From contig OX597840.1 of the NCBI GenBank assembly GCA_951406725.2, forward strand, positions 17,360,001 to 17,424,000: a stretch of DNA of 64,000 bases, in the 5' to 3' direction. The notes below the pieces were generated by a model, which was not told where the DNA came from, did no database searches, and worked only from the letters and a program-made list of their open reading frames with translations. A program made the position numbers and the translations under genes. Positions 10,851-59,176 of this stretch are shown one piece after another; the first letter of the stretch is position 1; each line of letters opens with the position of its first letter. Source of the stretch: Octopus vulgaris (Eukaryota).

Positions 10851-11308
10851 AGAAGAAGAAGGAAGAGGAGGAGGAGGAGGATATATATCGCTAGCCACTA
10901 CATATTCTTTATTTTCTCTCCTTGTTTCTTTCTGCGTTCCTTTCTGGGGAAGAGTGTAAGCTCAAAACATTAAAGACTTTTTCACTTCCCAAGCATTATA
11001 TTAATACATCTGTTTGTTGTCTACACCACCTGTCTTCATCTTTTACTTTTTTGTGAACTCTCAGTATATATATATATATATGTATATATATTGTTCCTAA
11101 ATCTTTCAATGAGAGATATTCAGTAGCAGAACTTTAAAGTAAAGATTATTTGCCAACCTAATGTGGTAGTCCTGGTTGGGATGAATGCTGCTGTTGTTTA
11201 GCCCCAGGAGACATCTTCTCCAGCTGGATGTATTCAACTGAATTTAACATACAACGTCTTATAAATTTAGATTTATAAGTTCAAAAGTTGCAAATTAATT
11301 TGTCAGTG

Positions 11309-11380
11309 GGCAGTATAGCTTAATGGTAAAGCACTTGACCAGTAATCAAAGGGATGTGAGTTTGAGTCTCATGGCTAGCT
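11309..11380 (+). tRNA. tRNA-Thr(AGT)-like pseudogene or SINE head
   Basis: D arm tagcttaatggtaaagc; anticodon arm ttga-ccAGTaa-tcaa; T arm gtgag-tttgagt-ctcat; poor acceptor stem and mutated TTC. Confidence 0.45.
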
Positions 11381-11916
11381 GCTGACAAATTTTTCGGCAA
11401 GATATGGATATTTTATCCTGTTCCTACTATTCTATCAGCATTATTCTGCATTGAATAATAAATCATTTCCTTATCTGTATCTTTCAATACATCTCAGTGC
11501 TTCTAAATTTGAATTTATGTATGTATGTGTGTGTATGACAGCCTTCATATCCACAAGACATTTGTTGATCCAAGGCTATCGTAGAAAACACTTGTCCAAG
11601 GTGCTATGCAGTGGGACTGAACCTGGAACCATGTGGTTAGGAAGCAAGCTTCTTACCACACAGTCATGCCTGCACCTATACATACAGACGTATATATATC
11701 TTTTATCTTTTACTTGTTTCAGTCATTAGACTGTGGCCATGCTGTGGAAGTGCCTCAAAGAACTCCAGTACTTATTTTTTAAGTCTTGTATTTCTTCTAT
11801 TAGAAGATATTCTACAGATAATATCATTGAAATTAATATGTCTGAGAATGCATATTAACACAGCCTTTTTAAGGTGATCCAAAGCTGGTTAAATTCAAAG
11901 TGAACAAAGGAAACAC

Positions 11917-12003
11917 CTCCGGTACACAAATGCATACAAAAATAACGTTAAGAAGAAATATAAATTAAGAAAAGCTATTTTTTAATTCAGCTGTTGGTGA
12001 CGT
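11917..12003 (-). pseudogene. Putative transmembrane exon of the minus-strand SUSD2/Mesh-like gene, 1-nt frameshift
   Basis: Acceptor 'tctttcattacccacag'; removing one A from an A6 run gives TSPTAELKIAFLNLYFFLTLFLYAFVYRR (hydrophobic helix followed by basic residues). Confidence 0.45.
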
Positions 12004-12721
12004 CTGTGGGTAATGAAAGAATACAAATAAACATATGAATTCTATGTTATGACAATTAGAAACAGAGATTCTACATAACGACAATTAGTTATCTATCAAT
12101 TAAGTATAATAAATATTTTTAGAAAAATTATACTCATTATATAATATATGAAAAACAATTATAATAAAGAAATGAAATATTTAAATGCCTTCAGAAATTT
12201 ATGACAACATTTCATTGTAAAATTACTATTATAATTTAATAATTTTTATTTAGCAGTAATTATATAATACATTTTTCCAGGACAAATAACACATGTAGAA
12301 TTGGCAATATTAATGACGGTGCATAAATAATCATGGACCAGTTTAAATCATACTTAATGTTCCAATCATTTAAATGCCAAATGCATTTACTAAGATTTGT
12401 AGAACTACTTTTTCTTCTTTACTTAAATGAGTGAAAATGGTTAGGAAATCTAGATTTCCAAATTATGGCAGATGAATTTATGTAATAATACTTATGATCC
12501 CCTATTATTATCTTACATTGATACATTATATATGGATGTATGAAGGAGTGGTGTGTGGTAAGAACATTGTTTCCCAACCACACGTTTCTGGGTTCAGTCA
12601 CACTGCATGGCCCTTTAGACAAGTGTCTTCTTCTACGGCCTCAGCCAACCAAAGTCTTGTGAGTGGATTTGGTACACAGAAACTGAAAGCAGCTTGTTGT
12701 GCATGTGTGTGCGTATGTGTA

Positions 12722-12905
12722 TACAAGGAGTGCTGAAAAGTTTCTGGCTTTAAGGGTATCATGAAAAGCCTGGCTGGAGGCCCAACCTTCCAAGTCCTTT
12801 TTAGGGCTTAGAAAAACTGAAGAACCACTGCCATAAGTGTGTGAATCTGAGAGGGGAACATGTTGAATAAAATCATAATTAACTGATACTCCTGTGTTTT
12901 CTTTT
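12722..12905 (+). mobile_element. Short mariner-derived non-autonomous element
   Basis: TIR-like 'tacaaggagtgctgaaaagtttctggct' and a transposase C-terminal remnant (KCVNLRGEHVE*). Confidence 0.6.
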
Positions 12906-55670: not shown

Positions 55671-55764
55671 ATTCATATATATATATATACATACATACAT
55701 ATATATATATATATATATATATATATATATATATATATATATATATATATATATATATATCCAT

Positions 55765-56774
55765 ATAAATTTGACATGGGCGATTCTTTCTTGTCTTGGG
55801 AGAAAGGTCCGGGAAATAAGCTGGGTGGGGAAGAACTTCGTAGCCAACTTCTGGAGCGTCATTAGTGAAACGTGTAGTCGAGCATTGTCACGAAGAATGA
55901 TTGGTCCTCTTCTGTTGACCAGTCTGGGATGGAGAAGTTGCAGTTTTACGTTCCTTTTGGCAATTTCATGGCAATATGTTTCTGGAGTAATGGTTTTTCC
56001 CAGGTTTTAAGAAGTTATAGTGGATGAGTCCAGCAATACACCACCAAATTGTCACCATAACCTTCTTTTTGAAGAGCTCGGGTTTAGGGAAGTGTTTCGG
56101 TGTTTCATTTTTGGTCCCTCCACTGCAAAAAAACGTTTTTTTATTATTGTACAGAATCCACTTTCCATCGCAAGTTACAATAGTCTTGAAATGGATTGGT
56201 CTGGTTACAGAGAAGAAGCGATAAGCAAATTTCATATCTGAGCATTTTCTGATTTTCATTCAAATCGTATGGTACCCATTTTTTCGAGCTTATTATGATT
56301 TTGCGATCGCATGCAAATGGTTGAAGGTAGTTTTCAGGCTAACTTGTAGTTCTTTTGCCAGTTCTCAAGTGGTTTTACGTGGATCTTTCTCAATGAGTCT
56401 TTAATTGACCGTCATCGCTGGCGGATGGGCGTCCACTATGCTCACGATCTTCAAGACTTAGGTCTCCACTGCGCTATCGCTTAAACCATTTTCGAGCTGA
56501 CCACTCATTGGTTATTTCCTCACCAAACGTTTCGTTGATATCGCGTGCAGTTTCGAATAGCAAAATTGCTCGAATATCGCGCTTTGACACTTCCATTTCA
56601 GATGATACTAACAACAATGGAAAAAATATCAATATTAATTTATTGATGTGTTTGGACAAGTCTATATCTGTATTATCAGACAATTTTTTTTAAATGTTAA
56701 AAAATTAAAAACTGCAAAAATCCGGTACAAATTCTGTATGGTTCAAAACGTTGCCTACTTTTTACTCAACCTGA
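55765..56774 (-). mobile_element. Degraded mariner (3' end missing)
   Basis: MEVSKRDIRAILLFE; IVTCDGKWILYNN; KKVMVTIWW; HDNARLH remnants; TIR at the right end. Confidence 0.88.
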
Positions 56775-57239
56775 TATTTCAATATATGATCACTCTGATC
56801 CTGAGTTCATATTCATCTTTACTGAGCCTTCTACAAAAACACATTACTACCCGTAAATATTTTCGTAAATATTACAAACGATATTACATCGCCGCTCCTT
56901 TTATTTGTTCCCGTCTCCGCTCTAATCACTCCCCCTTGCTCTTCTATGGTGCAGGGTGTCAAGTCACTCCTCTACATCTGCTCTGGTCCCTTCTCTCATA
57001 CTTGAACCTCTAATCTCCTACAATAAAGCTTACATCCTCTCTTGGAGTTCGTAGTCTTGATCTCACTAGTGCTGGTGACGTGAAATAAAATCACCCAGGT
57101 CACGTTGGAAGTGGTTGGCATTAAGAAGGGTCATTCAACGGTAGGAACCACACCAAAACAGACGTCTGAGTAAGGTGCAATGGTTAGATCTATTGTACCG
57201 TTGCCAAATATATATATATATATATATATATATATATAT

Positions 57240-57675
57240 CACCTTGATCACCTTGACCGACCAGTCCGTTGGGTGTCCATTTGACATCGCTGGTCACAGC
57301 ACGCTGTCCACTCCTCTCTGGATCGCGCCTTCCTCATCCACGTGATCCCGATCGCCCTCCTAAAATCAGTGAGCCGGGCGACGTGTCCAGCCCATCTAAA
57401 CTTGCTGCGTGTATATTCTACGATGACATCCCTCACGCCGGACTTCTGTCTGATGACGTCGCTACTGATGTGCTCTCTCAATGAGATTTCAAGCAATGAC
57501 CTCTCCATGGCTCTTTGAGCCGTTACCAATCTCTGATCTTCTCTCTTTGTTGTATCCCATGCTTCACTACCATATAACATTGCAGGTAGAACTGTGCTAG
57601 TGATGAGGTTGGCGCGGGTGGTCCTGTCCAACCTTCCCTTGAGCACATCCCTTATGCCATTAAACGCCTTCCATC
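57240..57675 (-). mobile_element. RTE LINE 3' fragment
   Basis: VLPAMLYGSEAW...QRAMER...FRWAGHVAR; tail ggtgatcaaggtgata. Confidence 0.88.
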
Positions 57676-59176
57676 ATATATATATGAAGGCGTTTAATAT
57701 ATATATATATATATATATATATATAGAGAGAGAGAGAGAGAGAGAGAGCAGTTGTATACTGTCAACTTAACGTGACAGTCCCATAAAGGGAATCACACCA
57801 CCGCTATTTAGCCCTAGGAAGCATCAACGCTTCCTGTGGCCCTTCCCATCCAGCTAAGCCTGCATCCAACCTTAATGCTTACCATATTAGGTAAGCATTT
57901 ATATTACAGTATATAAATATTTATATATACGTGCGTATAAAGTGAAATTTTCTTATAAAGTATGTATACTTCACAATATATGCACCGTGTTAAGAAGTGC
58001 TCATTGTGAGCTAAACTGAAGGAACACATCCAGACAATTAATTCAAATTACAAAGCATGAATAAGTTACTAGGCTTACAAAGAATAAGTCCTGGGGTCGA
58101 TTTGCTTGACTAAAGGCGGTGCTCCAGCATGGCCACAGTCAAATGACTGAAACAAGTAAAAGCGTAAAAGAGTAAAGAGTATGTGTGTGTGTGTATGTGT
58201 GTGTGTGTGTGTGTGTGTGTGTGTGTGTGTGTGTGTGTGTGTGTGTGTGTGTGTGTGTGTGTAGCTCACACATACACGAAACTCCAGCTCGTACTTCCTA
58301 ACCACCCATAGACAATTTATTGTAATATAAGCCATCCCTAATGTCCGATACACGGCTGGCATAAAAAAAACCCCTCACTTAATGATAACAATAGGAAGAA
58401 TTCGGTTACTGCTGCTGCAGTTAGAGATGGTGGTGGCAACAGGGATGGCGACAATGGTTATCGGTGGCGGGAATGGTGGTAATGGTGGTGGTGGTGGTGG
58501 TAGTCGTGGCGGTGGTGGTGGTAATGTCATAATTCCCCCAACCAATACGGAGTTAAACAGTAAATGTTCTCTGACCAATTCCTAAGCCTTTGCTTCAAGT
58601 TTCTTCTCTCTCTGTCTCTGTCTCTGTCTCTCTCTCTCTCCCATTGCCTCTTTTCCTCTCCCTTTCTCTTTCTCTCTCATTGTCTCTTAATTTCACTGTC
58701 TCTCCTTTCTCACCATGTCCTTCTCGCATTGTATCTATCATTCGCTCTTTTTCCCTTTCGATGTCTCTCTCTCTCTCCTCTCTTTATTCTCTATCTTTCT
58801 TTTACTTTATTGTCTCTCCTCCCTCACTGTCTCTCTCTCATTATCTCTTTGTCCTTTCTCTCTCTCACATTCTATCTCTCATTCTCTCTCACTGTCACTC
58901 TCCCTCTCTCATTCTCTCTCTTTCTCTTTCATTGTCCCTCTTTCTCTCTCTTCCATTCGCTCTCAATCTCTCTCACTGCCTCTCTCTCTCTAATTCTCTC
59001 ACCTGCTCCTTTCCCCTCCCCTTTTCAGTCCCCGTCCCCCGGCACATATTCACTCTGTGCCATAGAAAAGGCACACTCCTTTACATCCCCGATCTCATCG
59101 CTTCCCAGCTCTGTTCGATCTTGTGATACGTTTTCGAATTACAAGTATTTTGTTTTTCATGCGGTTCATTTTAAAG

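Follow-up and report, generated by a model that had tools for sequence, protein, structure and literature searches.

A 64,000-nucleotide stretch of Octopus vulgaris DNA (contig OX597840.1, positions 17,360,001 to 17,424,000; hereafter the window) carries diverged repeats in which a preliminary description had recognised a four-hairpin RNA motif with compensatory changes, raising the question of what these repeats are and what their shared fold might do. All of the copies listed there (11150-11228 and 57757-57841 on the minus strand, 20208-20292 and 19857-19940 on the plus strand) were present, together with an unlisted inverted copy at 19622-19799. Judging from their sequences, the copies are homologous rather than convergent (nhmmer E = 8e-14 for 11150 against 20208, 4e-6 for 11150 against 57757), and they are pieces of three families of ORF-less hammerhead repeats of 352-359 nt (F1, F2 and F3), whose consensus sequences are 50-64% identical. 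The retrozyme-like character previously proposed for the first copy only was correct for that copy, but all three derive from hammerhead units, the hammerheads of the F2 and F3 window copies having been lost by 5' truncation.

These three families are animal non-LTR retrozymes, that is, small, protein-less and non-autonomous elements with a small non-coding tandem unit and a type I hammerhead in each unit. Consensus sequences were built for eight families, in each of which a ~155-nt domain follows the hammerhead on its 3' side at much the same spacing; these account for roughly 50,000 insertions genome-wide. Unit lengths were 352, 359, 353, 362 and 359 nt in tandem, and the longest ATG-initiated ORF per unit (30-57 aa) leaves no coding capacity. 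The largest arrays comprise ~8 units, most copies here being dispersed, truncated or head-to-head. By eye, the type I core and three helices were found in 8/8 consensus sequences, with some core variants; Rfam models did not call these hammerheads. The features of the window are given below, where short and long ends denote two fixed 3' ends of insertions, lying either inside a loop closed by a predicted long-range helix (short) or past that helix (long).

11090..11230, minus strand: F2 copy (359-nt unit), 5'-truncated, long-ended and decayed; predicted long-range helix 11193-11187 with 11127-11121
19622..19799, minus strand: inverted F1 arm, truncated at its 5' side and with the short fixed 3' end at 19622
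19798..20346, plus strand: direct arm of the F1 insertion, a partial unit and one complete 352-nt unit that stops at the long fixed 3' end (20346), with (TA)n beyond
19855..19967, plus strand: second domain copy, in the upstream partial F1 unit
20094..20134, plus strand: minimal type I hammerhead motif of F1 (pattern scan and consensus, by eye), core 20098-20130
20154..20204, plus strand: predicted upstream hairpins A (20154-20170) and B (20188-20204), missed in the preliminary description
20207..20239, plus strand: predicted extended hairpin 1, with outer helix 20207-20211/20235-20239, internal loop and inner helix 20216-20231
20246..20319, plus strand: predicted long-range helix, 20246-20253 with 20312-20319, closing a multiloop; two-sided change at 8/8 pairs
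20301..20346, plus strand: tail spanning the interval from the short to the long fixed end; it supplies the 3' strand of the predicted long-range helix and carries a final small hairpin (20326-20336)
57697..57744, minus strand: run of (CT)n followed by (TA)n, abutting the short end of the F3 copy at a point where the template sequence is CTCT
57745..57868, minus strand: F3 copy (353-nt unit), 5'-truncated and short-ended, with an internal deletion of hairpins A and B; being short-ended, it lacks the partner strand of the long-range helix

The F1 hammerhead, with a palindromic helix III and, across the family, C instead of the usual U4, is predicted to cut after 20130, and the motif begins on that strand, 77-80 nt downstream of the predicted cleavage site, in line with the ~80 nt originally reported. 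In our model the motif is the middle of a larger predicted domain of ~155 nt, extending in both directions past the limits originally drawn. Within the four-hairpin layout, hairpins 1 and 4 held, with two-sided changes, although the 8-nt loop assigned to hairpin 4 is a 6-nt loop with a variable closing pair; one pair in the outer helix of hairpin 1 is broken in the F1 window copy. Hairpin 3 held in part, folding in 21/22 family rows from unrelated sequences (19 of them with ≤9/200 shuffles as stable) and missing in family F6, so that one hairpin is dispensable. Hairpin 2, proposed between GCTA and tagc, cagc or tggt, fell away, being 80% paired as against 79% in shuffles; one of its pairs was broken in 10/25 sequences, with no co-changes on the tree. 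Instead, GGCTA is predicted to close hairpin 1, whereas CAGTAGC would pair ~60 nt downstream in the long-range helix, the key helix of the fold, which reaches into the tail. In F1, its multiloop contains hairpin 3 (20258-20269), hairpin 4 (20272-20287) and the short fixed end (about 20300-20303). Upstream, hairpin B showed two-sided change at 6/6 pairs, and hairpin A, visible in the family sequences, lay outside the tested alignment. A stem scan of alignment A3 found no crossing helix supported like the nested ones. The excess of G-U over A-C counts (15 vs 7 in consensus rows, 34 vs 28 in all rows) was too weak to fix the strand. The Rfam 15 covariance models gave no match to the domain, the best scores (E 0.34-5.8) falling to unrelated families, in keeping with the fact that it had earlier not been assigned to a known class, and one pattern scan of metagenome contigs returned no match.

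The ends of insertions place this fold in relation to reverse transcription. Out of 228 distinct 3' ends, 91 lay 8-24 nt and 104 lay 52-85 nt after hairpin 4, in windows that were drawn after seeing the data and cover 51/101 positions; in F1, 13/39 ends fell at +16 and 18/39 at +59..62. The distance between short end and hairpin 4 was nearly fixed in eight families that differ in local sequence. Head-to-head pairs (n = 42) comprised 30 with a long and a short end, one with two long ends, none with two short ends and 11 with an unclassified end, i.e., 30/31 classifiable insertions had one end of each kind. The arms of one F1 insertion had non-consensus letters in common at 22/3388 positions; across loci, the figure was 35/46711. 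(TA)n flanked about half of the ends (94/195), and (CT)n followed 11/18 F3 short ends as against 0/73 in other families under the same rule, in a family whose query held part of the run and where priming by pre-existing (CT)n is possible. The 5' ends were scattered, with only 1/142 within 3 nt of the hammerhead cut, and retrozyme arrays read through that cut. The two 3' ends with a tail, the inverted 5'-truncated partner and the (TA)n targets together mark a sequence mobilised by a Penelope-like element (PLE).

Retrozymes have been proposed as non-autonomous derivatives of PLEs (available parts of PMC7229834 and bioRxiv 10.64898/2026.07.22.740005), whose reverse transcriptase (RT) is akin to TERT and whose insertions include truncated copies in inverted orientation, carry a tail at one end and target (TA)n (PMC8557442). 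In vitro, according to the part of PMC11167929 available to us, a Penelope-like protein depends on ~150 nt of RNA close to the hammerhead, initiates at two internal sites, which delimit a tail, cuts and extends both strands, and can dispense with hammerhead cleavage. The two fixed ends correspond to this pair of starts and the tail between them, which makes the fold a likely RT binding and initiation domain. A two-ended, TA-flanked footprint of this kind is also left by autonomous families in this genome. We thus favour, with some confidence, the reading that the ~155-nt domain recruits a Penelope-type RT/endonuclease and sets its two start points; the RT-recognition signal suggested at the outset fits the fixed insertion ends. 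The template RNA would be an uncut multimer or circle, in which the long-range helix, its 3' strand supplied by the tail, closes the loop around hairpin 4, leaving a single-stranded start exposed about 11-19 nt beyond that hairpin. The enzyme, probably a dimer, would nick both strands of AT-rich DNA, priming one cDNA in the loop and another 45-65 nt further 3', past the helix; both cDNAs would stop at random and then be joined head to head. The tail would be under selection because the fold needs it even when it is uncopied. More tentatively, and in our judgement still doubtful, the domain may be a template holder resembling that of telomerase RNA. In that case the helix completed by the tail would loop out a start site beside a boundary hairpin, a single enzyme dimer would prime both cDNAs from one RNA, each at its own fixed place, and stuttering at the loop start could yield short repeats.

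We regard as the least credible of the alternatives that the pairings arose from shared ancestry and from structure fitting on related repeats, with no selection on the fold. The families are indeed related (45-94% identity, one of them lacking a whole hairpin), several were found with the structure model, and an all-against-all, tree-aware test (R-scape style, own implementation, 22 rows) gave no pair with E < 0.05, the best being 0.28. Restricted to the 38 proposed pairs, the test gave three with E < 0.05 and one at 0.050, one of these partly through non-pairing co-changes; column-level co-change was almost nil for hairpin 3, the small start-site hairpin and the tail hairpin, and in held-out families 14/48 new pair types were non-canonical, ten of them in F6 and F9, whose alignment is visibly out of register. 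Against this, 23/32 pairs changed on both sides in a sequence-only alignment with 90.7% of cells paired, a result matched by 0/500 shuffles, with slid partners far lower. Tree-aware co-changes at the 38 pairs numbered about 31, compared with 7.8 ± 2.7 expected when partners were rematched on the same tree (null maximum 21 in 2000). Moreover, sister subfamilies that had been separated by their unpaired columns proved to differ by paired changes, and F4, F6, F7 and F8 were first detected by sequence-only searches. These results support an RNA structure under selection, as the preliminary description had supposed for its motif, and this structure is not in Rfam.

What such a structure is selected for admits other answers. 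Its compact branched fold, the conserved letters in its internal loop and loops, and the frequency of ribozymes in retroelements (available part of PMC6765202) would suit a second self-cleaving or ligating ribozyme, an option raised from the start that now has very little to recommend it: searches of three units gave no Rfam ribozyme at E ≤ 10, those of 7 loci gave none at the gathering level, only two columns are invariant in 22 rows, and one hairpin is dispensable. The 5' ends showed no pile-up in the motif either, a weak test since none was seen at the hammerhead. Barely less improbable is regulation of the hammerhead, for instance by blocking its activity before protein is bound or by promoting the dimerisation of two units; it would agree with the similar hammerhead-domain spacing in every family and with the anole element, whose hammerhead cut only with protein present (available part of PMC11167929), but it leaves the fixed 3' ends unexplained, and no covarying helix to the hammerhead was seen in alignments that began after it. 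A role for the fold unconnected with reverse transcription (in RNA stability, circularisation, export or evasion of silencing), with short local sequences setting RT starts that only happen to lie in the fold, is unlikely, though less so. Animal retrozymes accumulate as highly paired circRNAs (available part of PMC7229834), the domain at ~155 nt far exceeds what a start site needs, and autonomous families in this genome leave the same two-ended, TA-flanked footprint without it; yet its helices are local and branched rather than rod-like, and the near-fixed spacing of short end and hairpin 4 persists across differing local sequence. Recruitment and positioning of a Penelope-type RT thus remains our preferred reading.

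No autonomous element bearing the domain was found, three Penelope-like families checked being without it. Model R1 matched once over 33 endonuclease-bearing loci, in a separate F4-like insertion on the other strand, and no ORF-bearing carrier emerged from the window's own GIY-YIG fragment, Pfam GIY-YIG loci, a shared-flank search or tblastn of two PLE proteins over the sampled loci. In the Hydra-like and Neptune-like families, which include intact proteins of 778 and 781 aa respectively, only 60-130 nt follow the hammerhead, and the members sampled showed no pLTR homology, in a comparison that covered these two groups; cephalopod Naiads are old remnants (PMC8557442). When Hydra-like and Neptune-like elements were folded as single sequences, no equivalent tail-closed loop appeared, by a method whose tail-shuffle control did not discriminate even for retrozymes. 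Three chimeras with autonomous 3' ends (L028, L057 and L219) are ambiguous because retrozymes and autonomous elements insert in the same microsatellites.

The means by which PLEs, which are sister to telomerase, recognise their RNA is an open question, as is the reason why the tail on their copies is optional; one in vitro study narrowed the signal to ~150 nt, with no structure in its available part (PMC11167929). The families described here supply natural variation from which the important helices can be predicted, and they locate both start sites on the fold; this makes the question directly testable. Their insertions are a visible share of the genome's repeats. If the template-holder reading were true, a Penelope-like RT signal would have gained its first comparative structure, the existence of the tail would be accounted for, and RT-based gene insertion would have a portable 155-nt handle. 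We found no description of the ~155-nt domain in the literature covered; subscription journals, Repbase/Dfam and some supplements fell outside that scope and may bear on novelty.

Published metazoan non-LTR retrozymes resemble those described here in their ORF-less tandem units of ~350 nt (350-390 bp in mussel) and type I hammerhead; the available parts of these reports give no conserved domain besides the hammerhead and no insertion-end mapping, and cephalopods are absent from their main texts (PMC7229834; bioRxiv 10.64898/2026.07.22.740005). Another close counterpart is the Poseidon element PAc of the green anole, which likewise has a hammerhead, a needed RNA of ~150 nt, two RT starts with a tail, AT-rich targets and priming on both strands, but is autonomous, with start sites inside its ORF, a tail of 30-40 nt rather than 45-65, no strand preference of start sites in vitro where insertions here have one end of each kind, and no comparative structure in the part of the report available (PMC11167929). 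By eye, the letters of its Fig. S1 contain 7-bp and 5-bp complementary pairs around an A/C-rich loop (PMC11167929, in part), on which we would place the PAc start sites. For the octopus families, no matching autonomous pLTR was found among the families sampled.

SINEs and their LINE partners have common 3' recognition stem-loops, and RT starts at the RNA 3' end. Our domain is similar in being a structured RNA signal through which a non-coding element borrows RT in trans, and differs in that RT would start internally at two sites, one inside a helix-closed loop. In telomerase RNA the template is internal, in a loop that a long-range helix closes, and a hairpin lies directly 5' of it. The domain differs from it in that no pseudoknot was found and in that RT copies through the whole domain with no boundary stop; it resembles the telomerase template domain in that very layout and in a possible repeat stutter at the start.

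All of the copies for which the preliminary description had proposed an RNA motif, at 20208–20292 (+; also 19857–19940), 11150–11228 (−) and 57757–57841 (−), are present in the window, which comes from a microsatellite-rich animal genome of 2.8 Gb, probably that of an octopus-like cephalopod to judge by SINE motifs. The plus-strand copies belong to one insertion of retrozyme family F1. The 11150 copy, which represents family F2, is akin by sequence to the F1 copy at 20208 (nhmmer E of 8e-14) and to the 57757 copy of family F3 (4e-6).

The F1 insertion in the window
19622–20346: single F1 insertion; inverted arm head to head with a partial unit plus one full 352-nt unit, then (TA)n
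20098–20130: minimal type I hammerhead core

The insertion starts directly at the end of a remnant (18427–19617, +; frames 18427–18753 and 18636–19376) that we take, from its motifs, to be a Mariner-type transposase. A 463-aa open frame at 52931–54322 (+) presumably encodes an RTE-type LINE reverse transcriptase (RT), again by its motifs, and a short inverted repeat at 57652–57696, between the TA run of the F3 copy and an RTE-like fragment, is possibly the scar of another head-to-head insertion.

Each window copy has many relatives genome-wide (40 candidates scored per search), and the consensus units of F1, F2 and F3 (352, 359 and 353 nt) each carry a hammerhead motif and share 50–64% mutual identity. 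Further families came from sequence-only HMM searches of collected loci and of stretches chosen regardless of content, and others via a covariance model; eight have a consensus (F1–F4, F6–F8 and F10), while F9 and F11–F13 are based on just one or two copies. No ORF longer than 57 aa was found in the five units tested. By their layout, they belong with the animal non-LTR retrozymes described in PMC7229834 and bioRxiv 10.64898/2026.07.22.740005. Counting by hand in 1.2 Mb, made up of 200 kb next to the window and 1.0 Mb at round positions, gave 23 insertion clusters, which extrapolates to roughly 35,000–80,000 genome-wide. Copies of F4 are 99% alike, indicating recent amplification. In the F4 hammerhead core, U and A replace C3 and G8 (L131:9400–9450 and L274:10–60; L-numbers denote loci outside the window).

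RNAalifold, applied to a MAFFT alignment of nine copies from four families, predicted a branched fold of ~155 nt located 3′ of the hammerhead, with two-sided changes at 15 of 39 pairs, and its main helices were recovered again with 25 copies from six families. From 5′ to 3′, this domain comprises hairpin B; hairpin 1 with an outer helix, in which a conserved GGCTA pairs with upstream sequence; a long-range helix, whose partner strand lies ~60 nt downstream and which encloses hairpins 3 and 4 along with a single-stranded linker that includes a 3-bp hairpin; and a last hairpin after the close of that helix. Hairpin 3 forms in 21 of 22 rows, in a shifting register, and is missing from F6, yet this family was amplified. 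A pairing of GCTA with tagc, cagc or tggt, proposed earlier as a second hairpin, fails testing; it was misread because the window F3 copy is short-ended and lacks the true partner strand.

The RNA domain is real and selected. In the 25-copy alignment, 90.7% of cells are paired and both sides have changed at 23 of 32 pairs, a level reached by none of 500 shuffles, a null that ignores relatedness; sliding the partners lowers pairing to 35–48%. With tree parsimony on 22 rows, about 31 same-branch two-sided changes fall at 38 pairs, against 7.8 ± 2.7 with re-matched partners, the structure deriving partly from the same families used for testing. This signal is located in hairpins B, 1 and 4 and the long-range helix, but no individual pair reached E < 0.05 in an all-against-all test. 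When F7 is divided into subfamilies F7a and F7b by five columns, no two of which pair with each other, the two are distinguished by pair changes from G-C to A-U and from C-G to U-A. In single-sequence folding, z was roughly −2.7 to −2.9 for three of the four listed window copies and +0.5 for the one at 11150.

Rfam holds no match to the domain, and no ribozyme is among the best 150 of its 199 matches to the window. No description was found in the literature, including the accessible parts of PMC4209133, PMC6765202 and PMC10085705, and supplements or repeat databases may hold one. This kind of element is already known; what appears undescribed is how the domain folds and how the fold is linked to the tail, the segment between the two 3′ ends described below.

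Two preferred 3′ ends occur in every family with a consensus. Among 228 distinct ends, placed to within ~3 nt because of overlap with TA runs and collected with queries that favoured one end type per family, 91 lie at +8 to +24 from hairpin 4 and 104 at +52 to +85; the F10 long end is closer (about +43 to +52). The short end falls in the linker within the long-range helix, and the long end beyond the helix. Head-to-head pairs (n = 42) combined long with short in 30 cases, long with long in one and short with short in none, 11 having an unclassified end. The scatter of the 5′ ends, of which 1 in 142 falls no more than 3 nt from the hammerhead cut, together with copies that continue across the cut into the preceding unit, argues that the template was an uncut multimer or circle. 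Rare letters are common to both arms of an F1 insertion 9× as often as to arms of different loci (~2× for F2 and F3), suggesting one source per insertion, if not provenly one molecule.

The search for an autonomous partner covered Penelope-like elements, one of them a fragment in the window.

Penelope-like element (PLE) in the window
54419–55665 (+): 3′ part of a Hydra-like PLE, with a GIY-YIG-type frame and an end in (TA)n

At about 55565–55625, this fragment carries a hammerhead motif whose helix II is long. The Hydra-like family is young, with intact 778-aa frames elsewhere in the genome; in a Neptune-like family the intact frames are 781 aa long. Both clade names were assigned by reading motifs. 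Pfam gave no match for a 770-aa protein and found GIY-YIG in both endonuclease parts (one match below cut-off). In both families, copies are two-ended and have TA flanks; the domain is absent from them and from two further families read by eye. At L028:2087–2390, an F1 arm stops in hairpin 3 and is followed, with no TA run, by the 3′ end of a different Penelope-like family, including its hammerhead; this junction is possibly a template switch, which would point to the partner enzyme.

Other sequences are also joined to retrozyme copies.

LINE-like joined sequence
L061:1729–3099
L068:1–1393
L063:1240–1377
L220:1725–1900

Helitron-like repeat with a piece of subfamily F1b
L287:1669–1713
L308:9489–9533
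L223:2670–2714

The LINE-like sequence contains a zinc-knuckle ORF (Pfam zf-CCHC, E 9e-4, below cut-off) and finishes in AATAAA. In one F8 array and three F3 copies it abuts the retrozyme immediately 5′ of the hammerhead, the junction falling on the same base in all three F3 copies; either it inserts site-specifically into retrozymes, or it would be cargo that the domain carries along. The same ~70-nt short-ended F1b piece lies at three unrelated loci in a repeat whose ends we assume to be Helitron-like from the 3′ hairpin and CTAG.

We read the domain as a signal for RT binding and initiation, because the insertion footprints fit the scheme set out in the accessible parts of PMC11167929 and PMC8557442. 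The RT would bind the domain, possibly as a dimer, and the long-range helix may control the start sites. According to the available text of Frangieh et al. (PMC11167929), the anole Poseidon protein cuts and extends both strands at AT-rich targets, uses two internal start sites that match the genomic ends and bound the tail, and needs RNA from +20 to +172, hammerhead cleavage being unnecessary. PLEs, as portrayed in the accessible sections of Craig et al. (PMC8557442), leave inverted truncated copies in (TA)n targets, often with the tail at one end only.
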